DNA of 56,391 nucleotides. It comes from Micromonosporaceae bacterium (GTDB taxonomy: Bacteria; Actinomycetota; Actinomycetes; Mycobacteriales; Micromonosporaceae). Position 1 is the stretch's first letter. Each line of letters starts with the position of its first letter. The notes below the pieces were generated by a model, which saw only the letters and a program-made list of their open reading frames with translations, searched no databases and had not been told where the DNA came from. Where the stretch lies: assembly GCA_016926535.1 (NCBI GenBank), contig JAFGOK010000088.1, forward strand, positions 1 through 56,391, given 5' to 3'. The translations under genes and the position numbers were made by a program. This document shows positions 8,451 through 35,542 of the stretch, piece after piece.

Positions 8451-8452
8451 CC

Positions 8453-11419: not shown

Positions 11420-11430
<11 letters not shown>
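11005..11430 (+). CDS. HxlR-family winged-helix transcriptional regulator
   Basis: MREIFEIISHKWDLAILTNLRERPLRYTDLRDQI...LNKNLKRLKTGGLVCQR...VWALTPRG matches the HxlR pattern. The tail is acidic and disordered. Confidence 0.75.
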
Positions 11431-12253
<823 letters not shown>

Positions 12254-15500: not shown

Positions 15501-16788
15501 ACGTGCGACCTCGTTCCGCGCGGTGCTCCAGGCCGGGACAGCGGTGCTCCTTGACCGTTTTGGCTTTCCCGCTGTCAAGTGCTACTGCGGCAATCCCTTG
15601 ACCAGAGGAGAGCCTGTCGCCGAGGTTCGTTTCCAGGGCCCGGCATGGCCAGGCTTCTCAGCGAGCCGGATCGTCGATATCCAGCCCGTATCATCCCCGC
15701 TGACCGTTGTGATCATCATGGATCTGTCAACCGGCCGGCCCTTCCAGCGACCCGTCGGCAGCCGAGGTGACGATGACCGGCCATACCGTGCGGTCGACAC
15801 TGACTGGCGGAACACTCGCTATTCCACCAATTGCTGGGACCGTTCCGAGCAGGAACGGACTGTCGAGGTCCATGGCGGCCGGTACAGCGCCCGGGTCGGC
15901 GACAGCACCTACGACCTGCAGGTCGACCCGGTCGTCGAGGACCTGACCGGCGACGGTGTCCCCGAGGCCAGCGTGCTGCTGACCTGCACGCATCAGCCGT
16001 CGAACTACTTCCTGAACGAGATTCAGGTGTTCGGAGACGGACCGCGACGGCTCCAGGTCCTTCCCACGCCGCCCGATCGTCCGGAGCCGCAGTCTCTCGG
16101 TCCGTACTTCGAAGACCCCTTTGTGGTGCGGGACGCCCAGCTCATCACCGGCGCCGCCTACTACGTTGACGGCGACACCCACGCCTCCGGGCCCTCCTTG
16201 CACGCTGTGGTGTCCTGGCGCTGGAACGGCCACGAGTTCGTGTCGCACATCGACCAGACCACCCGAACCCCGGCAGAGCCCTCCTTGGAGCCTTCCCCCG
16301 CCGCCCCGAGCCCGACTCCGCCGCCCGTTTCATCGAGGACAACTACAGTCGTTGTCGACGCCACCGCTCCGTGGGTGGACACCGGCATCGACGTGCAGCG
16401 AGGAAACGGGCTGAAGATCACAGCGACCGGTGCGTGGTCAGACGGGACTGGTCCGTGGTCGCCGGATGGTCGACCGGAGCCGTGGGGTGACAGCTTCCTG
16501 AACCTGACCGATCTCGGCGTGTGCCCGACCTGCGCCGAGACCAAGGTTGGCCACTACGACGCGCTGGTGGGGTATGTCGGGGCCAAACCGCCGCAGCGAG
16601 GCAGCTATACCTCGACCGGCGTCCAATCGGAGGCGCGCAAGGTCTTCGTCGTCGGACAGCACTACTCGACCAGCGCCGCATCCCGGACCGGCAGGCTCTG
16701 GCTCATCATGAACTCGGACGCCTACAGCAGCTACACAACGGACAACAGCGGACACGTCACCGCCACCATCACGGCCAGCACAGGGTGA
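12568..16788 (+). CDS. CHAT (caspase-like) protease / STAND P-loop NTPase / single TM / extracytoplasmic lectin-like region, 1,406 aa
   Basis: His/Cys dyad motifs WDVLHLSGHG (aa 214-223) and ISACQS (C264). Walker A GPAGVGKTT (K447), Walker B LLLVLD (D530) and VLITSR. RWRRRG precedes the TM F838-V861 (nt 15079-15150). A 545-aa Cys-containing, beta-rich region follows. GGGGGAG SD before GTG 12568. Confidence 0.8.
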   Translation: MGLLLQATNVVGAHRWRWLLVDEDTGAPLADHDVTLDRENESVEAFEDLYRFVQSRADPARRVASETELVGSVGSWIGSHALGEQIGHEIVNAAPVTVRIQLPKKAEFLAFRPWELAHVDGRSLAARGNISLVFDFSSDSTRAKAPIDERLRMLAVFSLPAGVSTLGLRRERYELTRLVRRTAARSRRVVEVEVAQYGVTRDRLRDLAASGRGWDVLHLSGHGSAGQFLLERSDGSMDSVTAGELVELLGPLRRRVKLAVISACQSAATVAETLRWLDLGELSAETEGHADAETQLFRDGRGAANLARTVISELGCAVVAMRYPVTDEFAISLADRLYDGLFRHGQSLDAALPSAVRGAAGACPSAGRPALSIGTPAVFGGTAIGLSLTPPAGKPMLDPTAAVMTGFPSEPDLFVGRSATMVAASRALAAESGRTAVVLHGPAGVGKTTCVLELAYRHARTFEAAVFWRAPQDPGQFGTALASLSDRLEAPWSRFGFAMANQIRTKRDFDRFLPQLTTLLRETGLLLVLDNLESLLTADGTWRDPRWAALMRALTVHDGESRVLITSRVLPADCDRRRMTAVAVPALSRDESLLLAKELPNLRRLLHADADTPCEPGAIAEDRAIARRALRLAQGYPQLLMLANGAAGDPAQLADRVSATESAAGVEEPRLEEFLRLGRTVLDDEQLVELTSAWTHSATEALAREPRVMLQAFCRREEEDREAVIAEDNWGQLWRRLGYSEDPPAVADALAPLIAADLVRAEPVNSVDLDDTVGLCDPAESPDANRAGTTVRLSINPGVAQAVHAGTPPEVAAVMEMLAEQQRRATVPPGQRWRRRGFIVVALGLAILVVAASALVSLWIVRSGNRGVSNVITAPIEASGSDPFMPPVGTDQPGVQPPTSSGGVVPGSRSGFFGGTLGKSTCDPDQMVAVLKTRPALMAVWTEILGIRPEDLDSYAATLTPAVLRTDTLVMNHGFRQGRATSFRAVLQAGTAVLLDRFGFPAVKCYCGNPLTRGEPVAEVRFQGPAWPGFSASRIVDIQPVSSPLTVVIIMDLSTGRPFQRPVGSRGDDDRPYRAVDTDWRNTRYSTNCWDRSEQERTVEVHGGRYSARVGDSTYDLQVDPVVEDLTGDGVPEASVLLTCTHQPSNYFLNEIQVFGDGPRRLQVLPTPPDRPEPQSLGPYFEDPFVVRDAQLITGAAYYVDGDTHASGPSLHAVVSWRWNGHEFVSHIDQTTRTPAEPSLEPSPAAPSPTPPPVSSRTTTVVVDATAPWVDTGIDVQRGNGLKITATGAWSDGTGPWSPDGRPEPWGDSFLNLTDLGVCPTCAETKVGHYDALVGYVGAKPPQRGSYTSTGVQSEARKVFVVGQHYSTSAASRTGRLWLIMNSDAYSSYTTDNSGHVTATITASTG

Positions 16789-16847
16789 TGCCGCACCCGA
16801 CGAGGCGCTGGTTGAGATACCCTCGTCCTTCTTGAGGGAGGCAGCCA

Positions 16848-17363
16848 ATGCTGTTGGACGGTGATGCTTGGCGTGAGTTCTTCGACGCCTATGAGCGTTC
16901 AGCCTTCCGACTGGAGACCCTTCCCGTGTATGCGGTGCGGGAAGAGGAGGACGAATTCCGGCGCTTCCTGGCCGGCGAGAAGCCTCCGAAGGATTCGTAC
17001 TATCCGTGGCTCGACCGGGTGCGGCGGTTCCGCGCCACGGGCAGGATCATCCAGCGGGTGCATGTCGTCACCAGACCACTGTCGGACTATCTCAGATACG
17101 AGTTTGAATGGGCATACGCCTTCAACGTGAAGGCGGGCGAGGACATACGCATCCTCGACCTGACCGATCGACAGAACCCTGGCCTGCCGGATGAAGACTT
17201 CTGGATGTTCGACGAGTCCAGCATTGTCCGCATGATGTATCGGCCGGATGGTACGCAGATCGGTAGAGAATTGCTCACTAATCCGGATATCGACCTGTAC
17301 ATTCGGTATCGAGACATTGCTCTCGCTCATGCGGTCAGTTTCGAGGAGTACTGGGCGGGTTGA
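16848..17363 (+). CDS. DUF6879-like protein
   Basis: 171 aa. GAGGGAGG SD, 59 nt after the CHAT gene stop. The pattern AFRLETLPVY...RVHVVTRPLSDYLRYEF...GEDIRILD...DFWMFDE matches my recollection of the actinobacterial DUF6879 family. Confidence 0.6.
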   Translation: MLLDGDAWREFFDAYERSAFRLETLPVYAVREEEDEFRRFLAGEKPPKDSYYPWLDRVRRFRATGRIIQRVHVVTRPLSDYLRYEFEWAYAFNVKAGEDIRILDLTDRQNPGLPDEDFWMFDESSIVRMMYRPDGTQIGRELLTNPDIDLYIRYRDIALAHAVSFEEYWAG

Positions 17364-17400
17364 GTCGGGGCGGCAGGAGCGAGCGGCTCGTGGAGCGGTC

Positions 17401-18729
17401 CTACATCGGCTTGGACTGGTCGCTCATGTGTGGCTGGCTTTGCCGTTCGCCGCGTGGCGGCTCGACTATCAGGTGCTGACCGGGGCTCCGGAGACGGTGT
17501 CGGAAGTCAGCCAGTGTGGGGCGTCGACGTTCGGCAGCGGGAACCGCGGTGATGATGGCGCGTCCCATCTCGTAGAGCAGTTCGTTGTGATACGTGGCGT
17601 CGAGGTTGTCCAGGATCTGCGTGCCGTAGGCGAGTCCGTCGTCGAGGTGTCCGTCGATGACCAGGCAGCGTGCTCGGTGTAGTTGCAGCTGGGCTCGTTC
17701 TCTGGCCAGCTCCGGTGGGTACAGTGCGAGTGCCCGCTCCTGGGCGGCGTAGGCGGCGGTGGTGTCGCCGAGGTTGGTGTAGACGTAGCTTTCGGTGTAG
17801 CGCAGCCGGTACTCCGGCCACCCGAACATGGAGCAGTCGTCGTCAACGACGCTGGAGGGGAGCCGCTCGCAGGCGGTTGCCAGTTGCCGGAGCGTGGCAC
17901 GAGCGCTGTCTGCGTCACGCAGCGTGGACAGGGCCTGGGCCTTGCCAGCGAGGGTGCCAGTTGTGCCGGAACCCGTCCGGGTACCCGCGATGGCCAGGGA
18001 TTCGTCGGCCAGGGCGAGGAGCTCACTGATTGGCCTGCGCTCGTAGAGGCCGTTGACGACCTCCCATTTGCGCGTCCAGGCTTGGATCTCGGGGTCGTTG
18101 GCCTGGTCGGCGGCACGTCGGGCGGTGCGCCACCAGCGTCGGGCGGTGCGGGTCTGACCGAGGCTGGCGAAGGTCATCGCCATGACGACGCTGAGCTGAG
18201 CTGCGGCATGGCGCAAGTCGCGGTGAGCACGCTCGCAGGTCTCGGCTTCGATGGTCTGCTGGAGGACGATCAGGTCTGCGGTCAGTTCGCTGAGTAGGTT
18301 GGCGGGGGCTGTGGTGTAGAAGTCGCGGGCGTAGGCTGCCGCGATCGCTTCCCACTCGTCTGCTCCGGGAATATCCCCCAGCGCGGTCGCCATGCCCTGG
18401 CGGGCGGCTTCCGCCGATACCAGCGCGGCGCTGGTGGTGGCTCCGGTCGCGAGAGCGGTCAGTGCCGCGAGGATGGTTCGCCGTCGCATGGTGTCCGCAT
18501 CCCCTTCCCGGTCGCGGGGTGTGGGCTCGAACAACGCCACCAGGGCGCCGTTAGTGCCCAGAACGTCATCGCAGCGTTCGGCCAACGTGGGGGATCCGGG
18601 GCGTTGTCCTCGTTCGACCTGCGAGAGGTAGCTGAAGTCGTAGTTGACCTGCCGGGCAAGGTCGCGCAGGGACAGCCCTGCGTGTTGGCGGCGCTGGCGA
18701 AGTTCCTTTCCCATTGATGATGCGGTCAT
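17401..18729 (-). CDS. XRE-family HTH regulator with TPR-like helical C-terminal domain
   Basis: Start at ATG 18729. HTH LRQRRQHAGLSLRDLARQVNYDFSYLSQVERGQR is followed by a Tat-like RRRTILAALTALATG segment and a long helical-repeat region. Confidence 0.7.
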   Translation of the reverse strand: MTASSMGKELRQRRQHAGLSLRDLARQVNYDFSYLSQVERGQRPGSPTLAERCDDVLGTNGALVALFEPTPRDREGDADTMRRRTILAALTALATGATTSAALVSAEAARQGMATALGDIPGADEWEAIAAAYARDFYTTAPANLLSELTADLIVLQQTIEAETCERAHRDLRHAAAQLSVVMAMTFASLGQTRTARRWWRTARRAADQANDPEIQAWTRKWEVVNGLYERRPISELLALADESLAIAGTRTGSGTTGTLAGKAQALSTLRDADSARATLRQLATACERLPSSVVDDDCSMFGWPEYRLRYTESYVYTNLGDTTAAYAAQERALALYPPELARERAQLQLHRARCLVIDGHLDDGLAYGTQILDNLDATYHNELLYEMGRAIITAVPAAERRRPTLADFRHRLRSPGQHLIVEPPRGERQSQPHMSDQSKPM

Positions 18730-18962
18730 GGCCGACCTTTCGGCGAGTCTTGGGGGACGTGGGCTCGGCGTGGGCACACGGCCCACATCTAGCGATAGCC
18801 GAGAGTATCAATGAGACTACCCGCATTGGAGCGCATACACCGTCTCGCGAATGGTGGATGCGACATGCAGGTTGACACATCCATACGCCGCTCTGCGGTG
18901 CCGCCATCAGTGTTGTCGCTGCGCATAGAGTCGCATACTGTAGGCATAGGTACCAGTGGAGC

Positions 18963-19826
18963 TTGAGGAGCATCTCCGTGCTACGTCCTCGTGAACGACT
19001 CGGCCGGGAGCTTCGCAGCCTGCGCGTTCTGGCCGGGCTGACCGGACCCCAACTGGCCGAGCGCATGGGCGTCAGCCAGTCGCGGGTTTCCCGGACGGAA
19101 ACGGCGAAGTACCGGATCGACCTTGAGGTGGTTCGCCAGTGGCTGACCGCCACCGGAGCCGACGAACCCACCCGGCAACGCATCCTCAGCCTGGCCGAGC
19201 AGGCGGCCACCGAGATCGCCGAGTACCGGTCGATTTTCAGGGGCTCGCTGTTCAACGCCCAGCAAGCTCGGATCCAGGCCGAGGCGGCAGCTACCCGGCT
19301 GCGGCACTTCCAGCCGTTCCAGATCCCGGGTCCCTTCCAGACCCCGGCCTACGCTCGGGTGGCGCTGCAAACCGGCCGGGTTCAGGATCTCGCCGGTCTC
19401 GACGAGGCGATCGACGCCAGGATGCGTCGCGGCGAGCAGCTGCGCCAGCCCGGAGCCCCGGACTACCACGTCGTCCTGACCGAATTGGCACTGCGCTACC
19501 GGCCCGTGGGGATCAGCGACGCCGACCGCGAGCGGGCTTGGCGCAAACTCGTGGACGTCGCGGGCTGGCCGGCTGTCACGGTCCAGATCATCCCCGCCGA
19601 CGCTCCGATGCGGCAGGCGCCCATGTGCGCGTTCCTGATGACGGAGTTCGCCGATCCCCGCGAGTCGCCCATCGTGCAGGTTGAACTTCCCGCCGTCGAG
19701 ATGACTTTCAGCGGCGCCGACGACTTGGCTGCGTTCGAGATCGCCTGGCAACGCCTGGTCGATGCCGCCCTTGATCCAAAGGCTTCCCGTCAGCTCATCA
19801 CTGTCCTGCTCCACCCGGGTTCTTGA
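18963..19826 (+). CDS. XRE HTH + DUF5753 (WhiJ/Scr1-like) regulator
   Basis: LGRELRSLRVLAGLTGPQLAERMGVSQSRVSRTE plus the C-terminal pattern of DUF5753 regulators. A DUF397 gene follows immediately. Confidence 0.75.
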   Translation: MRSISVLRPRERLGRELRSLRVLAGLTGPQLAERMGVSQSRVSRTETAKYRIDLEVVRQWLTATGADEPTRQRILSLAEQAATEIAEYRSIFRGSLFNAQQARIQAEAAATRLRHFQPFQIPGPFQTPAYARVALQTGRVQDLAGLDEAIDARMRRGEQLRQPGAPDYHVVLTELALRYRPVGISDADRERAWRKLVDVAGWPAVTVQIIPADAPMRQAPMCAFLMTEFADPRESPIVQVELPAVEMTFSGADDLAAFEIAWQRLVDAALDPKASRQLITVLLHPGS

Positions 19827-26082: not shown

Positions 26083-26912
26083 CCGGCGCTCTCGGCCCGA
26101 TCAGGCGGGCCACCCCCGACGACGTTCCAGCCATCGCCGTCGTGGTGGCCGAAGCGTTCCACCCGCTGCGCGCCAGCCAGTGGCTGGTACCCGACCCCGT
26201 GATTCGTCGGGTGACCATGGCCGCGCAGTTCGCGATCCTTATCGAACACGCGCTGGCCTTCGGCCACGTGGATCTGCTCGCCGACGGGTCAGCGGCGGCC
26301 GTGTGGTTCGACCGCACCAAGCCGATGCCGGCCCCACCCGACTACGACCGGCGCCTGACCGTCGGGTGCGGCGAGCACGCCGCCCAGTTCCGGGTGCTTG
26401 ACGCCCTTTTCGAGCAGCATCATCCGGCCGACCCGCACCACCACCTGGCCATGCTCGCCGTCGCGGGCGATCGCCAGGGCGGCGGGCGCGGCACCCTCCT
26501 GCTGCGCCACCACCACCACCAGGTCCTCGACGACCAGGGCATTCCCGCCTACCTGGAAGCCGCCAGCATCCGCAGCGCCCGGCTGTACTACCGGGAGGGC
26601 TATCGGCCCCGTGCTGAACCGTTCGCCCTGCCCAACGAAGCGTTCTTCTATCCCATGTGGCGAACCGCAGGGCAAGGGAGCGCCGAGACCGGCACGGCTT
26701 CCCCACCCGGCCATCTGATCACCGCCGCCCGGCTGTCCCCATCGGACTCCGGCGCTGACCTGAACCTAGCTCACCCGACTCACCGCACTGGCAGGCCATC
26801 CGTCACCCGGGTGCGTGCCGCGGCCCTGCGACTCCGGTGGCAGCGGCACGCACCCGGTCCCATCCATCCACCTCACCACGTGCGTCTTCAATCCGCAGGA
26901 AGGCGGCGATGA
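26079..26912 (+). CDS. GNAT-family N-acetyltransferase (long low-complexity tail)
   Basis: ATG 26079 in ATGA overlap with the permease stop. IRRATPDDVPAIAVVVAEAF...HLAMLAVAGDRQGGGRGTLLL...YLEAAS...LYYREGY is a GNAT core. Confidence 0.7.
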   Translation: MTGALGPIRRATPDDVPAIAVVVAEAFHPLRASQWLVPDPVIRRVTMAAQFAILIEHALAFGHVDLLADGSAAAVWFDRTKPMPAPPDYDRRLTVGCGEHAAQFRVLDALFEQHHPADPHHHLAMLAVAGDRQGGGRGTLLLRHHHHQVLDDQGIPAYLEAASIRSARLYYREGYRPRAEPFALPNEAFFYPMWRTAGQGSAETGTASPPGHLITAARLSPSDSGADLNLAHPTHRTGRPSVTRVRAAALRLRWQRHAPGPIHPPHHVRLQSAGRRR

Positions 26913-27481
26913 TGCTCTCCCCAGCATCCGGCCACGACCAGCTTCCACCGATCATCGATCCAGGCCGTTCCAGCCCTGCCCGGGTCGACAACGCGCTGCT
27001 GGGCGGTGGCCACAACTTCGCCGCCGACCGCCGGGCGGCCGCACGGTTGCTCGCCGCCGATCCGAGGGCCGCCATCCGGCTGTGGATCCGCCGGCGCCTG
27101 CTGCGGCGGGTCACCCGGCTGGCTCTGGACGCGGGGATCAGGCAGGTTGTCCACCTCGGGTGCGGCATCCCGTTCCCCGGCGGCATCCACACCGCCGTAT
27201 CAGATCCCCGGGCCGTCGACCGGATCGTCTACGTCGACGATGATCCGGTTGTCGTCGAGCTCATCGATCAGGCCACGAATGATTCGATGGTCACAGCGAT
27301 CGACGGCGACCCAGACAACCTCCCCGAGGTCCTCAACCAGTTGCACGCCCGTCAGGTCATCAGTACCGGCGAGCCCGTCCTGGTCATCCTGGCCTCCCGA
27401 ACTCCGGCCCGGGCGGCAACCCGATTCCCGCAGGCCGGCTGGTCATCATCGATTACCGAGGATTCTCAAGAACAGCGGTGA
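26909..27481 (+). pseudogene. DUF574-type SAM-dependent methyltransferase, apparently C-terminally truncated
   Basis: The hallmark N-terminus SPARVDNALLGGGHNFAADR and Rossmann motif VVHLGCGIP are present. The family pattern is lost after ...GEPVLVILAS (about nt 27397), and the ORF ends about 100 aa short of the usual length. Confidence 0.5.
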
Positions 27482-27522
27482 TTCTCTGGCCGCCGGGCGT
27501 GGGAATATTGGGGTTTGGGCAC

Positions 27523-27546
27523 AAAAAAGGACCCGCCGATGCGGGT
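27523..27546 (-). terminator. Candidate intrinsic terminator for the minus-strand ICE operon
   Basis: The minus strand reads ACCCGC-ATCG-GCGGGT followed by CCTTTTTTGT (6-bp GC stem, 4-nt loop, T6). It lies about 30 bp beyond the left copy of the target duplication. Confidence 0.4.
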
Positions 27547-27579
27547 ACGGTGTCCATCGTCCTGCCATGGGGAAATGGT

Positions 27580-27604
27580 TGTGACTTTCAGTTGTAGTTG
27601 GCAC
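27580..27604. repeat. Tn7-like left (tniQ-proximal) terminal inverted repeat
   Basis: tgtgactttcagttgtagttggca versus the reverse complement of the right end, tgtgactttcggccgtagttggca: 21 of 24 identical. Further GTTGGCA-like copies lie at about 27613-27625 and 27655-27668. Confidence 0.8.
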
Positions 27605-27724
27605 TTGTCAGCGGTAGATGGCACCGCACCTGTGGACCGTGATCAGGGGTGTTGCCGGCCAGAGAGATGGCGGCCGTTCGTCGTGGTGAGGTCGATTGCC
27701 TCGTCCGACAGTGGTATTCGCCGA

Positions 27725-29698
27725 CTACGGCTGGTGACTGCGGCGAGAGTCCGGGTTGTTGGTCGCGATGCTGCCGCTGCTTCGCGGGTGCGTCGCGGTC
27801 CAGGGGCCGGGCGGCGTCGCGCCGGTGGTGTCGATGGCGTGGATGAGCCATTGCGCGTATGCGGTGAGGAGTTGCTGGAGGGCGGTGTCGTCGCGGATGT
27901 GGGCGAACGTTTTGTGGGCGCGCTGGCGCCATTGCTCGGCGACGTCGGTGGGTTGCTGGTCGCGGATGGGGTGGGGCGCGTAGGCGCGTTCGGTGCCGGT
28001 GACCCGGGACCAGACGATGATCGAGGCGCAGTCCTGCTGGCGATCGCCGAGTTCGGGTTGATGCCCGCGGCCGTTGCCCGGCAGTTGGTCGATGATGGTG
28101 GTCCAGCTTGCGGAGTCGATGCACCAGTCGCGGAGCGCGGTGCGGCGGCGATGGTAGTCGATGGGCTGTGGCATGGCCTCGATCTGGTCGGCGATGTCGT
28201 GGACCGCGGCTTCGAACTCGTGCGGGTCGCTGCGTCGCCGCGCCCAGGCGTGCACGGCCGAGATGCTGGAGTAGCTGCGGTAGTACGCCGTGCGGGTGTC
28301 GGGCAGGCCGAGGCGGCCCGCGGCTTCCCGAACGGAGCCGCCCATGGCGGTCTGGCAGAGGTGCAGTGCGGCGGTTCGTCGTAGCTGTGCGGTGTTGATG
28401 CCGTCGAAGTGGGCGAGATACTGCTGGTACCAGTCGTCTTGGAGGAACTGCGGGATGTGTTCGGGTCCGAACGGGACCCGTCTGATCGCGGCGCCCAGGC
28501 CCCGGCCCCGGCCAGGCCGGGCGTAGGTCTGCAGGATCGGGGCGAAGGCGTGTCGCAGCCCTTCGGAGCAGTCCGGCCGGACGGTCACGAACTGCCGGGC
28601 CCAACTCTGGCGGCCGAGGCGACGTTGATCGTGGCCGAGCAGGTGCCGCAGGTGCGGGGTGAGCGTGCGCGGCGTTTCAAGGGTGAGTAGCCCGTCGGCG
28701 GTGGTCAGTAGCGCCGCGCATGCGACCGCGTCCAGAGGCGGTGCGCGGTGTTCGGTGCGGGGATGATGGTCGGAGGCGGTCATGACGCGCCGCCGCCGAG
28801 TGGTTTCCTGCGGCTGGGTGAGGTAGGTATCCAGCGCGTCGGCCACTGCGGGGCTCGGTGTCAGGTCCCGGGCCAGCGGCCACGACCGCCGGATGAGGTA
28901 GCTGAGCAGGATCAGGTCGGTGAAGTACCGGGCTGGGGTGGTGGACTGGCCGAGGCAGTGGACCTGGTCGGGGCCGGCGGAGTCCAACGCGGCGAGGATG
29001 CGCTGCTGGGTGGCCGATACGGTGCTGCATGGTCGTTGCCCCGGGCGGGCGTCGGTGAGCCACGCGCCGCACGCCCCGTGCCGTCCGGCCTCGTCGTTGG
29101 TGGACTGTTGGCTGGGGCGGGCCCGGCATTGCGTCGGGTGCAGGCCGCTGTCCCACCAGCGGGGTAGGTGCCCGTGATCACGTTGGTGCACCAGGCTGCC
29201 GCAGGTTGGGCATTGGTGCAGTAGGTAGCGCCTGTGGTGGGGACAGGTGAACACGACCGGCAGGCACCAGGTCCGCTGCCATGGGCCGCCGTGGCGGCGC
29301 TGGATCGTGGTGCGGTCGCCGATCAGGCATTGCGGACAGTAGCGGGTCGACGTTGTCAGTTGCCACCGTTCGAGGTGGGTCCGGCTGCCGTGACGGCCTG
29401 CCGGGTCCGGCCGTGGCGTCGCCGGTGGATACCGGGAGGCGAAGGTGCTGGGGAACAGGTCGGCGACCTCAGCCGGGCTCAAGTGGGTGGCGTGGGCGAA
29501 GTTCCGTAGGGCGGCGGGCTCGGGTTGCGTGAGCAGACGGCGGCTGGGGGTTGTTCGCGGCGACTCGTGCAGGCCGGTGACCACGAGCAGCCGGGCGGGC
29601 GAGGTGTCCAGTCGGTGAGCCAGGCGCAGCACATATCCGGTGATCGACTCGTCGGGGAGGGGTGCCAGGCTCCGTGGCAGTCCCGGGCCTGGGGTCAT
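27725..29698 (-). CDS. tniQ: TniQ/TnsD-like target-selection protein
   Basis: ATG 29698 in ATGA overlap with the tniB stop. N-terminus LPRSLAPLPDESITGYVLRLAHRL is the TniQ signature. Cys/His zinc-like motifs (CPQC, CPHH...CPTC) are present. 657 aa. Confidence 0.75.
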   Translation of the reverse strand: MTPGPGLPRSLAPLPDESITGYVLRLAHRLDTSPARLLVVTGLHESPRTTPSRRLLTQPEPAALRNFAHATHLSPAEVADLFPSTFASRYPPATPRPDPAGRHGSRTHLERWQLTTSTRYCPQCLIGDRTTIQRRHGGPWQRTWCLPVVFTCPHHRRYLLHQCPTCGSLVHQRDHGHLPRWWDSGLHPTQCRARPSQQSTNDEAGRHGACGAWLTDARPGQRPCSTVSATQQRILAALDSAGPDQVHCLGQSTTPARYFTDLILLSYLIRRSWPLARDLTPSPAVADALDTYLTQPQETTRRRRVMTASDHHPRTEHRAPPLDAVACAALLTTADGLLTLETPRTLTPHLRHLLGHDQRRLGRQSWARQFVTVRPDCSEGLRHAFAPILQTYARPGRGRGLGAAIRRVPFGPEHIPQFLQDDWYQQYLAHFDGINTAQLRRTAALHLCQTAMGGSVREAAGRLGLPDTRTAYYRSYSSISAVHAWARRRSDPHEFEAAVHDIADQIEAMPQPIDYHRRRTALRDWCIDSASWTTIIDQLPGNGRGHQPELGDRQQDCASIIVWSRVTGTERAYAPHPIRDQQPTDVAEQWRQRAHKTFAHIRDDTALQQLLTAYAQWLIHAIDTTGATPPGPWTATHPRSSGSIATNNPDSRRSHQP

Positions 29699-30957
29699 GC
29701 GGCGTCGTCGGATGCGACGCGGTCGGGGGTGCCGTGATCGTCGAAGACCGTGTTGCGGCCACGCCGTTGCTTCGGGGCGCAACGGGGTTGTGAGGTGGTG
29801 GGCACTGCTGGGATCTCGCCGGCTGCGGGGTCGCGGGTGGGGTCGTTGCCGAGGTTGATGGTGATGGTGTCCAACAGGTTCTCGGTCAGCGTCTCGGCCC
29901 CGGTGTCGAGAGCCTCGGTGCAGCCGTCCTCCACCAGTCGTTCCAGCAGGCCGACCACACCGGCGGTGCGGCGGAACAGGTACTCCGGCATGGCGCCGTC
30001 GGTGAGCGTGCCCGGGGCGGCCTTCAACAGCCGTAGGTGGTGTTCCAGCCCGGCCAGATGCGCGACCCAGGCGGCGATGTTCTGCGGGGTGTCGTAACGG
30101 AACGGTTCCAGGCGGATCAGGTCGAAGCGCCGCTCGGTCTGGGTGGACGCCTCATCGCCGGCCGGTGGTGGCAGGACCCACTGGCCGGTGCGGGGGTCGT
30201 GTCGGCCTTCGCGTAGCAGCCCGGAGCCGGGGATGTCGACGCCGATGAGGACCAGGGTGGTGTGCATGCTCATGAACGCCCGGAGCAGGTCGAGAGTGTC
30301 CTGGTCGTCGGCACGGTGCATCTTCAGGCGGGTGATGTCGTCGAGGAGGAGTGCCCGAACGCCGTGGTCGTGCAGTGAGCTGCGCACCGCCCGGGTCAGT
30401 TGGGGCAGGGTCATCTTGTGGTGGTCGGCGCCGAAGAAGTCCAGGATCGCCTCGCAGGTGCTTTTCGGTTTCGCGGTCACCGGGGTTTGCACGTAGGCGA
30501 CCGGGGCGTGCAGGTCGCGGGTGCCAGGGAGTGCGTTCGGGTTGAGGTGGTGGTGCAGGTCCAGCCAGGCATCCTCGAACGCGGCGGCGATCTCGCATGC
30601 GGTCTCGGTCTTGCCCTGGTACCCACCGCCGGTGATCATCAGTCCGGCCCGGGTGGTGGGCTTGTGTTTGAGGGCGTTGGTCTGCAGCCGGGATCGCATG
30701 ATCCGGGTGACCGCCAGGCTCATCGGCGTGTCCTGCAACGGCAGGTTGGCGTGGGTGGCGGCGCGGTGCAGGTCGTGCAGATGCCGCTTGCGGGGGCTCA
30801 GCCTCCGGTAGTCGGCGGTGCTCAGCCGCGGGGCGGGTACGAACGCGTGCCGGGTGCGCCGCCAGCGCTGCCAGCCCTCGACGGTCTCCCGGTCGGTGAT
30901 CGGCCCGGGCAGGATGAACGACGACGGCGCGTCGTCGCGTGCCGGGTCGATCCTCAC
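29695..30957 (-). CDS. tnsC: TniB/TnsC-like AAA+ ATPase
   Basis: Walker A ITGGGYQGKTE and Walker B ALLLDDITRL. Overlaps tnsB and tniQ. Confidence 0.8.
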   Translation of the reverse strand: MRIDPARDDAPSSFILPGPITDRETVEGWQRWRRTRHAFVPAPRLSTADYRRLSPRKRHLHDLHRAATHANLPLQDTPMSLAVTRIMRSRLQTNALKHKPTTRAGLMITGGGYQGKTETACEIAAAFEDAWLDLHHHLNPNALPGTRDLHAPVAYVQTPVTAKPKSTCEAILDFFGADHHKMTLPQLTRAVRSSLHDHGVRALLLDDITRLKMHRADDQDTLDLLRAFMSMHTTLVLIGVDIPGSGLLREGRHDPRTGQWVLPPPAGDEASTQTERRFDLIRLEPFRYDTPQNIAAWVAHLAGLEHHLRLLKAAPGTLTDGAMPEYLFRRTAGVVGLLERLVEDGCTEALDTGAETLTENLLDTITINLGNDPTRDPAAGEIPAVPTTSQPRCAPKQRRGRNTVFDDHGTPDRVASDDAA

Positions 30958-33287
30958 GACGCCTCCGGTGGATGCTCGCCGGTCGCCTGGTCGGAATCTG
31001 GGCCGGGGCCGGTGTTCTCGTCTGGCGGCAGCAGGAACAGGTTGCGCTGCCGGAACCCGTCTCCCAGCCGGGCCGGTGGGGTGACCGGGTGCCCGGCAAG
31101 GGCCTCGCGGCGGCGGTGTGCGCGGTCGCTGTCGACGGTCTGCTGCACCTGCTGGGCACGCTGGCGCCAGCCGGGCTGGCCGACCGTGGCCGCGGGGACC
31201 GCGCCCGCACCAGTGCCGCGGCCATTGGATCGGCGTGAACCGGTGGTCCGGGTCGCGTCGCCAGGCGGGCCGCCTGCTGCGTTGCCAGGGCGGTCGGTGG
31301 CCGCGGCCCGTGCCTGGGTGGCCTCGCGGGCGTGCGCGATGCGCTCGGTCTTGGCCATCTGGGTGGGCCAGGCATCGACTGGGATGTGCGCTCCGATCAG
31401 GTCCAGCAGCAGTGGCAGCAACTCGGCGTCCGAGCGGGGCCGCAGCCCGGCCTGGGCGGCTGCGGCGAGCAGATCACGGACCCTGGCGTCGTTGAACGCG
31501 GGTACCTCATCCTCGGGTGGTAGCCCGGCCCATCGCAGGGGATGCCAGTCGTGGGTGTTGGGGTCCTGGAAGAACACGGCGCGGGCATCGCGCGGGTCAC
31601 GGCGGATCACCCACTGGCGTTGGTGCCGGCCGCCCCGGGCCGACGGTTCGTTGCGGTAGGCGTCCAGCGCTGCCCCGTCGTACCACAGCCCGCGGATCTT
31701 CACCCCGCGCTGGCCGTGGATGCGCACGTGGTGCGCGGGCAGCAACTGGTAGTACAACTGTGGGGCGGGGATCTGGATCGCGAAGCCGCCCTGCGCCATC
31801 GCCGCGGCGAACAGCGTGTTCGGACTGTGGTCGCCCACCGGGTCCCAGCACGGCGCGTGTTCGCCCAACCGCCGGTTCTGCCAGATCTTGACCGTCCAGG
31901 TCGCGATCAGGTGCTCCATCGCGTCGATGGTCAACACCGCGTCGGCCTCCGGATCGACGCCACGGTCGGCCACGTCGACACCGCTGTAGCCGAGCAGGTG
32001 CTCGAACAGCAGCGACCGGATGCCGCCAAACGCCCGTTCGATCGCCTGCTTGTCGGTAGGACGCAGGACCCGGCTGGGCAGGATGTTGGCGCCCAGCACC
32101 CGCTGCACCTCGACGAGGTGGTGGTTGCGGTAGACGCTGCCGTGATCGGTGGTGATCGTCTCCGGGGCGAAAAACGGCAGGCCGGCCACCTCGTACCCGG
32201 CGAACTCGGCCACCATCGCGGTCGGCAGGCCCGGGTAGGGCCAGGCCATGTCCTCGCCCCAGTCGCCGCGCATCGGCAGCGGCATCGTCACGTCCCGCAA
32301 CAGCATCGCCACGTCCACCGCGCAGTCGGACACCAGCGTGAGTCGGAACGCCACCAGTGAATGCGTGTAGGCGTCCAGCGCCAGCGTCAGGTGCACCGAC
32401 ACCGGCTCACCGAACACCGTCTCGCGGACCTTGACCGGCAAGATCGTGGTGTCCAGGGCAACGACCTGCCCCGGCCGGTGCACCACCACATGCCCAGCGC
32501 TGGTCGGCAACTGCGCGGTGCGCGCGTAGCGTTGCCGGGCCCCTCCCGGCCCGAACCACTCCCGCCAGACCAGCCGCAGCGTGCCGTAACTCGGGATCGC
32601 CGCCTCGGCCTCGACACCATGGCGTTCCCGCACGTACTGATGCACCAGCCGTTCCCGGGTCCGCATACTCACCCGCGAGCGGTGCAACGTTTCCATGCGC
32701 ACCGCATGGATCGCTTCGCGGACCTGCTCGCCCACGCTCGGGTGCCCGGCCACGGCCCGTAGCCATCGGTCATCGGCGCAACCAATCGCGCCGAACTGGC
32801 GGCGACGAACCTCCCACCGTTGCAGGGTGCGGTAGCTGATGCGCCCCAGCCCCAGCAGGCGGGCCTGGTCAGCGTCCAACGCGGCCAGTTCGGCGGCCTT
32901 CGTCCGCCGCCGCTGGGTGCGGGTCGTGGTCGCCGGGTCGTAGCACCCCTGCGGCTCGCCCGGTCCTGGGCGCAGCGGGTCCCCGCTGCGGAAGCCGGTC
33001 TCCACCTCCAGCAGGTGCGCCACCCGCAGCGCCACCAACTCCCGCTGCCGCACGCTCAGATCGCCCATGCCCGCTGGCTGGCGTCCCCGATCCGCGGCCG
33101 GCACCGGCGTCTGCCGGGTCGACGGCCGGCAGCCGGGATGGTTGATCAGAAACCGGAACGTCGCTGGCATCCGGTCGCCGCCAACAGACACCAGCACCAC
33201 GCGGCCGCACTGCGGTTCGGCGTGCTCGACGACCCATTCCACACCGTCGAGGATCAACCGGGTCCCGGCAGACAGGTCCAACGCCAT
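30954..33287 (-). CDS. tnsB: TnsB-like DDE transposase (rve core + Mu-transposase C-terminal domain)
   Basis: Start taken at ATG 33287 (MALDLSAGTRLILDGVEWVV). N-terminal HTH regions, DDE core (VVALDTTILPV, TITTDHGSVY) and the C-terminal WVIRRDPRDARAVFFQDP motif. Confidence 0.85.
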   Translation of the reverse strand: MALDLSAGTRLILDGVEWVVEHAEPQCGRVVLVSVGGDRMPATFRFLINHPGCRPSTRQTPVPAADRGRQPAGMGDLSVRQRELVALRVAHLLEVETGFRSGDPLRPGPGEPQGCYDPATTTRTQRRRTKAAELAALDADQARLLGLGRISYRTLQRWEVRRRQFGAIGCADDRWLRAVAGHPSVGEQVREAIHAVRMETLHRSRVSMRTRERLVHQYVRERHGVEAEAAIPSYGTLRLVWREWFGPGGARQRYARTAQLPTSAGHVVVHRPGQVVALDTTILPVKVRETVFGEPVSVHLTLALDAYTHSLVAFRLTLVSDCAVDVAMLLRDVTMPLPMRGDWGEDMAWPYPGLPTAMVAEFAGYEVAGLPFFAPETITTDHGSVYRNHHLVEVQRVLGANILPSRVLRPTDKQAIERAFGGIRSLLFEHLLGYSGVDVADRGVDPEADAVLTIDAMEHLIATWTVKIWQNRRLGEHAPCWDPVGDHSPNTLFAAAMAQGGFAIQIPAPQLYYQLLPAHHVRIHGQRGVKIRGLWYDGAALDAYRNEPSARGGRHQRQWVIRRDPRDARAVFFQDPNTHDWHPLRWAGLPPEDEVPAFNDARVRDLLAAAAQAGLRPRSDAELLPLLLDLIGAHIPVDAWPTQMAKTERIAHAREATQARAAATDRPGNAAGGPPGDATRTTGSRRSNGRGTGAGAVPAATVGQPGWRQRAQQVQQTVDSDRAHRRREALAGHPVTPPARLGDGFRQRNLFLLPPDENTGPGPDSDQATGEHPPEAS

Positions 33288-33298
33288 AGCACCGGTCC

Positions 33299-34171
33299 TC
33301 ACCGCGACTCCTTCCCGGCACAGACCACGCTGGTCTCGCCCAGTGGCGAGCCGAGTTCGACACCCAACCGGCGTCGCCACAGAAGATGCAGCAGCCAGGC
33401 CCGCGCCACTGGCGGCGCCACCGTGGTCGCGGCCAACTCGCCGAACGGGCGCGGCCCCGCAGCCACCGCCGTCACCAACGCGTCCGCCATCCCCAGCCGG
33501 TCGGTCAACGGGCGCCGTTGTGCCGACAGTGTGTCCAACGTGGTCGTCATGTGCGGTTTCCAACCAGTCACCACGACATAGCGCCAGCCCAACATCAACG
33601 CCACCTCGGCTGATGCGGCGAATGCCACCCGGTCCTGCTGGGCAACCCGAGCGGCTGGCCGTACATCGATCAGCCACCGACCGGTCCGGGAGAACGCGAG
33701 GTAGTCCGGGATGTGCTCGTGCGGACCGCTGCGGGTCGAGTACCGCAGCCGCAACGGTTGCGCGAGCACATCCACCAGGTCACCGGCGAAGTCCAGCGCG
33801 AGCAGCAGCCGGGCTTCCTCCAACGACTCGAACCCGTGGTGGCGGCCGGTGCTCACCAGGAACTGCAGCCCCGACCGGTGCCGCTGGTTACGGCGCCAGG
33901 AAAAGTGGCGTACCGGCTCACACCCAGTCGCCGGCATCGACCCCAGGTCCCGTGCCGGGCAGGTGACCTCGTCGCCCGCATACCGCCACGTCGCGGTCCA
34001 GCGCCTCGCCCAATCCGGACCGAGTCCCAGCGCGCCGCGTACGTCATCGAACCCACCGCACGAAACGGCCAGGTCATCCCACCCACAGCGGTGCGACCAT
34101 ATCGCCGCCCGGCCAGGAGGCGCCTCTCGGCCATCGGCAGCACCCAACCGGCCCTTGATAGTCGTCACCAC
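33299..34171 (-). CDS. tnsA: TnsA-like endonuclease subunit
   Basis: GTG 34171. FESLEEARLLLALDF...HIPDYLAFSRTGRWLIDVRP fits the TnsA N-terminal PD-(D/E)xK-type domain. Lies immediately upstream of tnsB. Confidence 0.7.
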   Translation of the reverse strand: MVTTIKGRLGAADGREAPPGRAAIWSHRCGWDDLAVSCGGFDDVRGALGLGPDWARRWTATWRYAGDEVTCPARDLGSMPATGCEPVRHFSWRRNQRHRSGLQFLVSTGRHHGFESLEEARLLLALDFAGDLVDVLAQPLRLRYSTRSGPHEHIPDYLAFSRTGRWLIDVRPAARVAQQDRVAFAASAEVALMLGWRYVVVTGWKPHMTTTLDTLSAQRRPLTDRLGMADALVTAVAAGPRPFGELAATTVAPPVARAWLLHLLWRRRLGVELGSPLGETSVVCAGKESR

Positions 34172-34326
34172 ACCATCAAAGCCAACAACTGTGGTATCTA
34201 TTCGGCAACACGCCTAATTAGTGCCAACAACACTGAAAAGTATGATAGATGCCAAGTATGGCAAAAAAGCAGTGCCAACCATCGCTGGCCGAAGCGGTCG
34301 AGTTCGCAGCCCACCGTGTCGCGATG

Positions 34327-34351
34327 ATGCCAACTACGGCCGAAAGTCACA
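34327..34351. repeat. Tn7-like right (tnsA-proximal) terminal inverted repeat
   Basis: ...tgccaactacggccgaaagtcaca ends at 34351. Additional (T/C)GCCAA(C/G) copies lie at 34180, 34203, 34222, 34250 and 34273, denser than at the left end, as in Tn7. Confidence 0.8.
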
Positions 34352-34441
34352 ATGGTCTCCGATCCACCTGCGCTCGCGTTGGAGCACAGCTGTCTGGCCG
34401 CCGTGCGATGCGCGTTTCGCAGCTACACTTCGCAGACACAA

Positions 34442-35542
34442 TCATTTAGTGACAATCCGGCGTATTTTGGCTATACGATTAATCCATTTTGATATATCGC
34501 TAATTTTTACAGTATCACCCGTATGGGGTGCTTGTATTAAAAGTCCTTGTCCTATGTAGAGTCCGACGTGTCCTGGGCGGCTCATCGTGCCGTCGCTGCC
34601 GGGGATGAAGATGAGGTCTCCGGGGAGGATGCTGTCGAGGCTGGCGACGGCGATACCGGCGTACTGCTGCTCGCGGGTGGTGCGCGGCAGCCGGATCCCG
34701 GCGGCCTTGTAGGACTGCTGAATCAGCGACGAGCAGTCGCACTGGTGGGCTGGGTCGCCGGAGCGGGCAGCGGTGCAGTCGCCGCCGTAGGAGTATGGGG
34801 TGCCGAGCTGGGCCAGGGCCCAGGCGATGGCGGTGACCACAGCGGGTGGGGTGCTCGCTGGCAGGACGAACCCGGGCGGCAGCGAGAGGGACCCGCCGCC
34901 GGATTGCCCGTCGCCGCCGAGCCCGATGCAGACGCTCAGCCACTGGGCGAACTCGGCCGGCAGGATCCCGCTGAGCGTGGGGCCAACATGTGCCACGAGC
35001 AGGTACGCATCGTGTTCCCAGGCTGAGTATGCCGTCGGGTAGGCGCTGCGCTGCACGGCCTGTGCTGCCTGGGCCACGGGCAGATCCTGCCAGTGGGGTA
35101 CCTGCAGGAGGCGCTGGTAGAACCGGGTAGCGGCGTAGACCGGGTTGAGGATCTGGGCGGGGGTTCCCCAGCCTTGACTTGGGCGTTGCTGGAACAGGCC
35201 GAGGCTGTCATGGTCGTTGCGCGGCCCGAGGTCTCCGAGGTTGCGGAGGCTGGATTCCTGGATGGCGGTGGCGACGGCGATGACCCAGCCCCGGGGCGGT
35301 ATCCGCAGCCGCTGGCCGACGGCGACGATGGTGGCCGCGTTGGTGACCTGCTCGCCGCTCCAGTTTTCCACCGCCGGCCAGCCGCCCTCCGGGGCGCTGG
35401 AACCGCTGGGTGGGTCCGTGGTCGCGGGCGTCGCGCAGGTGGCCAGGGCGAGGCCGCCGCCCAGGAGGCCGAGTACCGCGACGCCTCCCAGGATGAGTAC
35501 GGCGATGATGCCGGCCAGGCCGGCGATGATCTTGCCGCTCAT
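34442..35542 (-). CDS. Conjugation-associated cell-wall hydrolase (N-terminal muramidase-like region + C-terminal NlpC/P60 C40 peptidase)
   Basis: ATG 35542 with GGAGGAAG SD. Signal/TM segment, DHDSLGLFQQRPSQGWG motif, and C40 motifs DCSSLIQQSY (Cys), GHVGLYIG and APHTGD (His). Confidence 0.8.
   Translation of the reverse strand: MSGKIIAGLAGIIAVLILGGVAVLGLLGGGLALATCATPATTDPPSGSSAPEGGWPAVENWSGEQVTNAATIVAVGQRLRIPPRGWVIAVATAIQESSLRNLGDLGPRNDHDSLGLFQQRPSQGWGTPAQILNPVYAATRFYQRLLQVPHWQDLPVAQAAQAVQRSAYPTAYSAWEHDAYLLVAHVGPTLSGILPAEFAQWLSVCIGLGGDGQSGGGSLSLPPGFVLPASTPPAVVTAIAWALAQLGTPYSYGGDCTAARSGDPAHQCDCSSLIQQSYKAAGIRLPRTTREQQYAGIAVASLDSILPGDLIFIPGSDGTMSRPGHVGLYIGQGLLIQAPHTGDTVKISDISKWINRIAKIRRIVTK

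Follow-up and report, generated by a model that had tools for sequence, protein, structure and literature searches.

A cargo-free Tn7-like transposon beside a conjugation-module hydrolase gene in a Micromonosporaceae metagenome contig

INTRODUCTION

Tn7 of E. coli combines the TnsABC proteins with the target selectors TnsD and TnsE, and its attachment site, attTn7, lies downstream of glmS. As a rule, transposases of the Tn7 family show no activity unless a target selector is present (Hsieh et al. 2024, bioRxiv 10.1101/2024.11.13.623437), and 96% of Tn7-like elements carry cargo (PMC8649781). An Actinobacteria-dominated Tn7-like clade, which is not known to have been characterised experimentally, appears as clade 2 in Benler et al. 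2021 (PMC8649781); the Tn7-like elements of Streptomyces were surveyed by Hsieh et al. 2024 (bioRxiv 10.1101/2024.11.13.623437). Here we analysed a 56,391-bp stretch of a Micromonosporaceae metagenome contig, referred to below as the window, which carries a Tn7-like element next to the conjugation genes of a putative mobile island.

RESULTS

Ends of the element and target-site duplication

The element is 6,772 bp long and has base-precise ends (27580-34351). Its features and those of its immediate flanks are as follows.

27521..27546, minus strand: intrinsic-terminator-like hairpin ACCCGCATCGGCGGGT followed by TTTTTT (consensus scan and direct reading)
27575..27579, no strand: left copy of the target-site duplication, ATGGT (read directly; same as 34352-34356)
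27580..27624, plus strand: left (tniQ-proximal) end; terminal inverted repeat TGTGAC... plus two strong TnsB-type sites of 20 bp that abut each other
27725..29698, minus strand: tniQ, 657 aa, long TnsD-like target selector (Pfam TniQ PF06527)
29695..30957, minus strand: tnsC, 420 aa, AAA+ regulator (Pfam TniB PF05621 and AAA_22)
30954..33302, minus strand: tnsB, 782 aa, DDE transposase (phmmer against PDB)
33299..34171, minus strand: tnsA, endonuclease subunit (NCBIfam NF033179); the range is that of the longest ORF, 290 aa
34221..34351, minus strand: right (tnsA-proximal) end; terminal inverted repeat plus four TnsB-type sites with strong scores
34274..34292, minus strand: terminator-like hairpin and T-run (consensus scan), inside the right end and overlapping one TnsB-type site
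34352..34356, no strand: right copy of the target-site duplication, ATGGT (read directly)
34442..35542, minus strand: NlpC/P60 (C40) cell-wall hydrolase gene, 366 aa (P0121; Pfam NLPC_P60, E 5.6e-21)

The terminal inverted repeats, TGTGACTTTCAGTTGTAGTTGGCA (27580-27603) and TGCCAACTACGGCCGAAAGTCACA (34328-34351), match at 21 of 24 positions in the form TGTGAC...GTCACA, and ATGGT stands outside both of them, as the preliminary description of this DNA had reported. Shuffling of both 1.2-kb end regions (n=40) gave best inverted matches of 17-20 of 24, and the analytic expectation for at least 21/24 anywhere in the two 1.2-kb regions is 0.0017. The chance of a matching 5-mer (5/5) is 0.0016, or about 3e-6 jointly with the 21/24 repeats.

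Scanning with a 20-bp weight matrix placed strong TnsB-type sites at 27585-27604 and 27605-27624 on the plus strand of the left end (28.6 and 24.5 bits) and at 34327-34346, 34272-34291, 34249-34268, and 34221-34240 on the minus strand of the right end (26.3, 18.3, 25.9, and 23.2 bits). The six strong sites score 18-29 bits and the best match outside the ends 14 bits; the matrix was seeded from five of them, which leaves the site at 34249 as the sole independent recovery. The putative TnsB sites are thus arranged asymmetrically, two strong on the left and four strong on the right, all oriented inward. Weaker GTTGCC/GATGGC-type candidates, two per end, extend to about 27675 on the left and about 34175 on the right and bring the total near the counts of about three and about six motifs given earlier. 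GTTGGCA has five copies in the window, four of them in the element ends and all four pointing inward. At the right end, the GC content drops to 0.55, and the hairpin located there could, from its sequence, stop read-through from the hydrolase gene into tnsA.

Assembly support and copy number

Only one public run contains the element or either flank. Logan contigs of that run span the junctions on the left (26500-32493) and on the right (32467-34838) with zero mismatches, and contig depth is about 13 in element and flanks alike. Judging by this single-copy depth, the element landed once in this genome. Since the window is a metagenome contig held by a single run, the junctions could in principle be an assembly chimera with no transposon inserted at this place. 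We give this explanation almost no credence: in an independent assembly of the run, both junctions are spanned without mismatch and at the depth of the flanks, and a perfect 5-bp duplication exactly at the ends of 21/24 inverted repeats is a signature of transposition and not of misassembly.

Operon and encoded proteins

The genes tnsA-tnsB-tnsC-tniQ all lie on the minus strand (27725-34171) and are joined by 4-nt overlaps, GTGA for tnsA/tnsB and tnsB/tnsC and ATGA for tnsC/tniQ. The non-genic remainder of the element amounts to 145 bp and 180 bp, and both stretches are taken up by end repeats, which leaves no space for passenger genes. The overlapping four-gene arrangement and the lack of passengers described earlier are therefore borne out.

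TnsA scored 147.7 bits against the NCBIfam model NF033179 TnsA_like_Actin (cut-off 110, residues 76-283) and weakly against Pfam Tn7_TnsA-like_N (E 0.006); its true start probably lies further in than that of the longest ORF. In its motif E115...D156...D169-V-R171, the E and D residues are conserved and R replaces the canonical K of (E/Q)-x-K, as it does in 69/70 relatives, and because D-x-R is conserved across the family it is probably tolerated. Comparison of TnsB with PDB sequences by phmmer revealed the catalytic core of V-K CAST TnsB (8rdu, 7svw; E 2e-7), with the second D and the E aligned, while the Pfam Mu-transpos_C and rve matches were weak and below their cut-offs. The D..D..E candidates lie in ALDTT, TTDHG, and AIERAF. 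The tnsB start was placed from its overlap (GTGA) with the stop of tnsA and from a GGAAGGAG ribosome-binding site, and the resulting length fits the 750-780 aa called in relatives. TnsC matched Pfam TniB PF05621 with 30.5 bits (cut-off 22.4) and AAA_22 with 33.2 bits (cut-off 27), its translation carries Walker A GGGYQGKT and Walker B LLLDD, and it is 88% identical to the TnsC of L001, the locus with the closest TniQ.

TniQ matched PF06527 with E 3.6e-19 (70.3 bits, cut-off 27), and an alignment of 40 sequences shows no variation in its zinc-finger motifs CxxC...CxxH and CxxC...HxxxC. An AlphaFold model with a mean pLDDT of 86 had as its best PDB fold match the Tn7 TnsD-TnsC-DNA complex (8v32_J, E 3.5e-4), with a low TM-score of 0.24-0.32, and a TniQ profile searched against PDB sequences found Tn7 TnsD at the zinc finger (E 0.013). 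The predicted fold of TniQ is thus most like that of Tn7 TnsD. Its closest relatives are 79%, 56%, and 51% identical.

Comparison with known systems

The Tn7-like identity first proposed for this element stands, as TnsA, TnsB, TnsC/TniB, TniQ, TGT...ACA ends, and a 5-bp duplication are all present. Like Tn7, the element has a heteromeric TnsA/TnsB transposase, an AAA+ TnsC, a selector that combines a TniQ domain with a long helical C-terminal region, several TnsB sites that are more numerous at the tnsA-proximal end, and a right end that faces the 3' end of a gene. It differs from Tn7 in its very distant proteins (the TniQ/TnsD profile match has E 0.013 and the fold match a low TM-score), in having neither TnsE or a second selector nor cargo, in the D-x-R of TnsA where Tn7 has a catalytic lysine, and in the distance from the stop codon, 86 bp here and about 25 bp in Tn7. 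No conserved attachment gene was found for the lineage of the window element.

By sequence similarity, the element belongs to the known actinobacterial Tn7-like clade. Its TnsA lies above the NF033179 cut-off, and its gene order is common to 80 genome loci, which come from Streptomyces, Micromonospora, Nocardia, Actinoplanes, and Amycolatopsis, among others. Twenty of the relatives that were examined have the TGTGAC-N-TAGTTGGC/GTCAC terminus and perfect 5-bp duplications that differ in sequence. Within this clade the window TniQ is set apart in that no known sequence exceeds 79% identity to it; no TniQ copy above that value is present in the protein collection searched, and the search for further copies of the element thus returned none. 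The lack of cargo distinguishes the element from Tn7-like elements generally, and several actinobacterial relatives are equally minimal, with cargo-free elements of 6.6-6.8 kb (lengths from end coordinates) recurring in the family. The window element has a single TniQ, whereas many Streptomyces members have two or three. It is not linked to telomere-maintenance genes.

The Tn5053/Tn402 elements (TniA-TniB-TniQ-TniR) share a TniB-type AAA+ protein, TniQ, a DDE transposase, and 5-bp duplications with the window element; membership was rejected on the presence of TnsA and the lack in the element of a fifth gene, a TniR resolvase, and a res site. Because TnsA is present and the resolvase and res site are absent, cut-and-paste rather than replicative transposition is expected. 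A CRISPR-associated transposon (CAST) was likewise rejected, as the four genes and the end repeats fill the 6,772 bp and the element holds no cas genes or array.

Insertion site

The NlpC/P60 gene is the final gene of a T4SS conjugation module that comprises a PrgI-family protein, VirB4, a coupling protein, a Replic_Relax relaxase, ArdC, DUF2637, and NlpC/P60. Its product is 74% identical to an orthologue in a Micromonospora globbae ICE, in which the ArdC-GGDEF-DUF2637-P60 synteny is kept. The stop codon (34442-34444) lies 86 bp from the ATGGT duplication, and the 3' end of the gene faces the right end of the transposon, in agreement with the preliminary description. The target is a spacer of about 175 bp between two convergent genes, NlpC/P60 and a methyltransferase gene fragment, with a GC content of 0.55-0.58 at the insertion site against 0.70 in the surrounding sequence. 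The hairpin at 27521..27546, mapped with its T-run to 27546-27531 in the scan of the minus strand, now follows tniQ at about 29 bp from the duplication and was presumably the terminator of the hydrolase gene; the proposed separation of that gene from its candidate terminator is thus supported by the hairpin and T-run found there.

Similarity to related ICEs ends at about the P60 stop codon, and in the closest ICE it ends 13 nt before the stop. The order P60, variable region, A24 peptidase, orf9142, SAF, T2SSE, and T2SSF is common to the window and the related locus L086. On this synteny, the spacer appears to be the start of the variable region in a larger island that also has a Tad-type pilus module, and as the spacer opens this region the element very probably travels with the island. 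The placement inside a mobile island is drawn from synteny with a single related contig, because the ICE or island boundaries lie outside the window.

Target sites of relatives

Elements L004 and L128 are 92% identical and occupy the same position, and their flanks are only 75-79% identical. In nine Streptomyces elements, the left end is 21-25 nt from one conserved palindrome, and the right side is variable. The two subclades reuse one site each, and therefore sequence-specific targeting exists in the family. Among the right flanks of 35 family members there is no common gene, the similarities amounting to one clear pair (L004/L128) and two weak pairs, and the family flanks compared share no gene or motif. 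L001 lies 57 bp after a prepilin-peptidase gene, its flank has no similarity to the window flank, its tniQ is frameshifted, and its contig contains no left end.

DISCUSSION

The element very likely represents a Tn7-like transposon of the actinobacterial clade that is intact and carries no cargo. By homology with Tn7 and CAST systems, TnsB would bind the repeated 20-bp sites, two and four in the two ends, and TnsA and TnsB would jointly cleave the two strands at the TGT...ACA termini, so that the element would move by cut-and-paste. The AAA+ protein TnsC would connect the transposase to the TnsD-like TniQ, which would select the target, and joining across a 5-bp stagger would produce the ATGGT duplication. 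For the site choice, the most plausible of the candidate accounts is TniQ-guided recognition of a short, local, lineage-specific sequence where insertion is harmless, and not of a conserved hydrolase-linked site. Two observations weigh against this overall reading of the element: TnsA has D-x-R in place of the Tn7 catalytic lysine, and the closest relative, L001, sits in unrelated sequence, which is unexpected under strict specificity, although the tniQ of that copy is frameshifted and its contig lacks a left end.

The preliminary description had read the locus as TniQ-directed homing, in which TniQ recognises a fixed site linked to the hydrolase gene's 3' end on the ICE, in the manner of TnsD at glmS, and the element spreads with conjugative elements. 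We now consider this improbable. The orientation itself is as described, with the right end facing the 3' end of a conserved gene and the insertion intergenic and before the terminator, and the TnsD-like fold of TniQ and the one-site reuse in two subclades are in line with homing. However, the argument from the canonical Tn7/glmS orientation does not transfer to the family, because the clearest attachment site, that of the Streptomyces subclade, adjoins the left end and not the right. Two relatives are also found, with the orientation seen in the window, downstream of ICE P60 genes (L004 by 1.6 kb and L079 by 3.0 kb), but other genes intervene between P60 and their right ends. Conjugation or Tad genes are close to L001, L010, L019, L040/41, and L057, and in the M. 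globbae ICE the P60 stop is closely followed by two small insertions, from another family, that end in TGT...ACA. On the other side, none of 43 P60-relative loci (34-74% identity) has Tn7-like genes downstream, the three closest TniQ relatives are in unrelated sequence, and comparison of the right flanks of the window element, L001, and L004 gave no more similarity than shuffled controls did. An exact junction scan for the empty site gave 0 matches in metagenome contigs, which drop rare variants, and the single run holding the element likewise yielded no contig that skips it; no second occupied copy of the site was found in these searches or among the 43 loci. Because the insertion is 86 bp and not about 25 bp from the stop, a TnsD-like footprint (+23 to +58 at Tn7-like spacing) would fall in the spacer and not in hydrolase coding sequence, and this spacer is not conserved even in the closest ICE.

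Insertion with little or no sequence specificity, or steered by AT-richer intergenic DNA or a palindrome, with survival in a neutral spacer between convergent genes, is a possible but less favoured reading of the same data. It fits the variable duplications, the lack of a common gene or motif in the flanks, and the lower GC content of the site. It also fits an identical Micromonospora element found at two sites in two strains (duplications CCGCC and CCGGC), two Nocardia elements that follow one and the same stop codon at 15-22 bp but point in opposite directions, and three copies in one MAG (L028, L029, and L082), although L029 and L082 may be a single insertion because they share a 94% identical flank. 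Among the precisely bounded family insertions, 20/21 are outside coding-like ORFs, in both orientations relative to neighbouring genes; this intergenic bias does not discriminate between the models, because selection alone can produce it. Against low specificity stand the normal inactivity of Tn7-family transposases without a target selector (Hsieh et al. 2024, bioRxiv 10.1101/2024.11.13.623437), the long, intact, TnsD-like TniQ, and the fixed-distance reuse of one site in two subclades. Palindromes centred 30-44 bp outside the left end at 5/21 sites, against 1.8 expected by our own estimate, point the same way but are marginal.

Two further, related ideas are, in our view, quite doubtful. The lineage may insert, via its single TnsD-like TniQ, at the border between conjugation module and variable region of conjugative islands, or TniQ may read a palindrome, either an operator or a terminator, that lies some 20-50 bp beyond the left end. 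The former would allow horizontal spread with one selector and no TnsE-type protein, and the latter would be the opposite of all characterised Tn7 and CAST systems, whose geometry is right-end-proximal. As hints toward these ideas, the window, L004, and L079 are all downstream of ICE P60 genes in one orientation, and other family elements adjoin Tad, relaxase, or PrgI genes. In addition, the nine Streptomyces left ends keep their 21-25 nt distance from a conserved palindrome, and the window hairpin lies 33-48 bp outside its own left end.

Structure of the transposon and its termini

The Tn7-like transposon spans positions 27580–34351 of a window with a GC content of about 70%, typical of actinobacteria. 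All the features of the preliminary description were found at their coordinates: the inverted-repeat termini read as it had given them and pair at 21 of 24 positions, with the ATGGT duplication directly outside both (27575–27579 and 34352–34356). Shuffled end regions paired at 20 of 24 positions at most, and the joint chance of a 21/24 repeat together with a matching 5-mer is approximately 3e-6. A 20-bp weight matrix, seeded with five of the repeats, was used to locate TnsB sites. It returned six putative transposase sites with scores of 18–29 bits, against 14 for the best score elsewhere in the 56 kb, two of them abutting in the left (tniQ-proximal) end and four lying in the right (tnsA-proximal) end, all pointing inward; the site at 34249–34268 was outside the seed, yet was recovered. 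With weaker GTTGCC/GATGGC-type copies included, the totals come near the roughly three left and six right motif copies originally described. Four minus-strand genes occupy 27725–34171, joined by GTGA, GTGA, and ATGA overlaps, and fill the element with no space over, which bears out the reported absence of passenger genes.

A search of the SRA word index with the element and each flank revealed the window's DNA in one public run only, a sediment metagenome (X1). Independently built contigs of this run cross both junctions with zero mismatches and at a depth of about 13, equal to that of the flanks, so the insertion is real and single-copy. The precise Tn7-like insertion is thereby confirmed.

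The four transposition proteins

The proteins and the evidence for their assignment are as follows.

TnsA (33299–34171, minus strand): passes NCBIfam TnsA_like_Actin, 147.7 bits against a cut-off of 110
TnsB (minus strand): matches the catalytic core of solved CAST TnsB structures, E 2e-7, with D, D, and E present
TnsC (minus strand): passes Pfam TniB and AAA_22, with Walker A and B motifs present
TniQ (minus strand): passes Pfam TniQ, 70 bits

By homology, all four match the expected Tn7-family components. TniQ comprises 657 amino acids, and its structure model has a mean pLDDT of 86. Comparison of the model with solved structures revealed the Tn7 TnsD-TnsC-DNA complex as the top match (E 3.5e-4), although the TM-score is low, which a flexible protein of several domains would be expected to give. 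Because this best match is the Tn7 TnsD complex, the TniQ model is assigned as a long TnsD-type selector, a type associated with protein-guided targeting (Faure et al. 2023, PMC10293859). TnsA differs from its Tn7 counterpart in the third motif, which is D-V-R in the window, whereas Tn7 has the catalytic lysine; in the motif E...D...D-V-R, arginine occupies the lysine position in 69 of 70 relatives.

Relatives of the transposon

Tn7-like elements are studied for their target choice and as programmable insertion tools. Homologues of TniQ are common in Streptomyces, Micromonospora, Nocardia, Actinoplanes, Amycolatopsis, and others, each with at most 79% identity to the window's protein, and a scan of species-representative genomes yielded 80 loci with the tnsA-tnsB-tnsC-tniQ order. 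Their ends were called by searching for TGT/ACA plus a perfect 5-bp duplication; a generic inverted-repeat finder gave GC-rich noise. Twenty relatives were bounded precisely, all with termini of the form TGTGAC-N-TAG(T/A)TG(G/T)C like those of the window, and several are as minimal as its element (6.6–6.8 kb). The plasmid collection contained relatives only, whose DNA matches segments of tnsB and tnsC at 74–79% identity. The element and its relatives match an Actinobacteria-dominated, experimentally uncharacterised Tn7-like clade (Benler et al. 2021, PMC8649781), of which the element is a new member. Hsieh et al. (2024, bioRxiv 10.1101/2024.11.13.623437) report that 40% of Streptomyces genomes contain Tn7-like elements.

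The window holds a minimal specimen, with four intact genes, base-precise ends, six predicted transposase sites, and a single clear duplication; its target can be reconstructed in silico. Since the copy is clean and minimal, it is a convenient start for a first transposition assay in the clade, and its main value is as the minimal substrate for such a functional assay.

Genomic surroundings

The right side of the transposon carries a T4SS conjugation module consisting of an integrase, a PrgI-family protein, VirB4, a coupling protein, a Replic_Relax relaxase, ArdC, GGDEF, DUF2637, and NlpC/P60 proteins. The hydrolase shares 74% identity with its counterpart in an ICE of Micromonospora globbae, where the order ArdC-GGDEF-DUF2637-P60 recurs, and the DNA similarity to this ICE ends 13 nt before the hydrolase stop codon. 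The left side carries a methyltransferase fragment, a permease, regulators, and a CHAT-STAND protein, with a Tad-type pilus module farther out. The left-side features are as follows.

5238–12253: Tad-type pilus module (T2SSF, T2SSE, SAF/CpaB-like, A24 prepilin peptidase), syntenic with the P60-bearing contig L086
12568–19826: a 1,406-aa CHAT-STAND NTPase with DUF6777, then DUF6879, then HTH_31/DUF5753 regulators
26837–27481, plus strand: Methyltransf_19 ORF, truncated, covering only positions 5–158 of the 268-position model

Contig L086 has the order seen in the window: P60, a different 6-kb stretch, the A24 peptidase, orf9142, and SAF. Because both modules are kept there with a different stretch between them, the transposon sits where a variable region between two conserved modules begins, very probably inside a mobile island. 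A precise, intact, cargo-free Tn7-like transposon within a conjugative island is well supported, and it offers one example of how such elements can ride on ICEs. The stretch 12568–19826 resembles accessory or defence-type cargo carried by the variable region. In the rebuilt site, a spacer of about 175 bp separates convergent genes, and the hydrolase's terminator-like hairpin is now displaced past tniQ. Insertion of the transposon was considered as the cause of the Methyltransf_19 truncation; the ORF stops 94 bp short of the duplication, so the truncation has another cause. The ORF running into the left end had no Pfam match.

In the relative L010, a Tad-type module like that of the window is found just beyond tniQ, and in L001 the right end directly adjoins an A24 peptidase gene. 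Over its final 35 or so codons (34445–34550, minus strand), the NlpC/P60 gene encodes the conserved C-terminus in AT-rich codons, with a GC fraction of 0.48 against 70% for the contig; the M. globbae orthologue is far less AT-extreme at its 3' end. This tract could reflect recombination or an overlapping DNA signal. Directly past the P60 stop of the M. globbae ICE (L084:11106–13188, also L085) are two TGTAGGTTCTC...GAGAACCTACA-ended elements of another kind, one a 212-bp miniature flanked by ATAAT/ATAAT and the other 1.86 kb long with two small ORFs. The same terminus is present in L034 and L048, and in L016 and L018 it is found 60–70 bp beyond the left end of the Tn7-like element; the TGTAGGTTCTC end motif is absent from the window.

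Proposed target selection at the hydrolase flank

The right end faces the 3' end of the NlpC/P60 gene (34442–35542, minus strand), and the preliminary description proposed TniQ-directed homing to this flank. The empty site, with 27579 joined to 34357, gave 0 matches in an exact 26-mer scan of metagenome contigs, and blastn of the rebuilt 3.2-kb site against 86 loci matched the P60 coding part and nothing else; no unoccupied copy was found among the run X1 contigs or through the SRA index either. No further copy of the element was found, with run X1 as its sole hit in the SRA word index. In the nearest relative, L001 (TniQ 79%, TnsC 88%), the right end lies 57 bp past a prepilin-peptidase gene, and local alignments of the right flanks of L001 and L004 with that of the window scored no better than shuffles. 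An element with an identical TniQ is inserted at two separate positions in two Micromonospora strains, flanked by CCGCC in one and CCGGC in the other. Comparison of 35 right flanks revealed no common gene, except that L004 and L128 clearly pair and two further pairs match weakly, and 21 aligned insertion sites (70 bp each side) contained no common motif or informative column. All-against-all blastn and tblastx of the flanks gave almost nothing, and the 43 loci with P60 relatives contained zero Tn7-like genes. Tn7-like spacing would moreover put the selector footprint in the non-conserved spacer, not in the hydrolase coding sequence.

Together, the relatives, flanks, and P60 loci show unrelated contexts, which is the outcome that the preliminary description had itself named as arguing against site-specific targeting. 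No comparative evidence supports homing to the hydrolase 3' flank, which we retain as a minority possibility, and the position in a conjugative island does not speak for a dedicated ICE-homing pathway.

Site reuse elsewhere in the family

Judging from flank comparisons, sequence-specific targeting does occur in the family. The elements of L004 and L128 are 92% identical over 6.6 kb and occupy the same position, with flanks only 75–79% identical. In nine Streptomyces loci (L044, L056, L058, L060, L068, L071, L073, L074, and L083; e.g., L073:13772–13830), the tniQ-proximal (left) end is 21–25 nt away from the conserved palindrome CACT(T/A)TTGCAAGC-N4-GCTTGCAA(T/A)AGT (site CACTTTTGCAAGC-N4-GCTTGCAAAAGT), which is located upstream of a regulator gene of the XRE family. 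Some of these elements are pairwise 94–96% identical, against 72–85% for their flanks, and the right-end side is not conserved. The palindrome site thus looks like a true attachment site proximal to the left end; an Rfam search of the attachment block found no RNA family. In this subclade the conserved target side adjoins the left end, the reverse of Tn7, so the rule that the right end faces the target gene is not assumable for the clade. About 3.4 kb beyond the palindrome and regulator there is a RipC-like NlpC/P60 gene.

The L004 and L079 elements, oriented as in the window, lie downstream of ICE P60 genes at distances of 1.6 and 3.0 kb, with other genes between. Conjugation or Tad genes occur within 10 kb at six or more further loci, which hints at a possible association of the family with conjugative islands. 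Among 21 duplications, GCCGG appears three times, and several of the rest closely resemble it. At 5 of the 21 sites, one of them that of the window with its terminator hairpin, a palindrome with a stem of 6 bp or more has its centre 30–44 bp outside the left end, against about 1.8 expected, a marginal enrichment.

The shared flank of L004 and L128 (L004:3900–5294, L128:120–2963) consists of a RAMA-domain gene and a 112-bp block adjoining the right end, with an extra 1.4-kb gene between the two in L128; neither left end was found within 10 kb, and the DNA past tniQ is unrelated. The Micromonospora elements with identical TniQ (L002 and L003, 1077–13979 in both) are the same 12.9-kb element at different loci in two Micromonospora tulbaghiae assemblies. 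It carries two tniQ genes and, separating tnsA from the right end, an ABC-transporter cargo; the CCGCC copy lies inside an LtrA-like gene, within its final 44 nt. Two related Nocardia elements (L014:12060 and L017:4211) lie 15–22 bp past the same gene's stop codon in opposite orientations, each within a small palindrome. Several minimal 6.7-kb copies are found per MAG, L028, L029, and L082 in one and L050 and L057 in another; L029 and L082 have a 94% identical flank with a 1-bp offset and may be one locus assembled twice.
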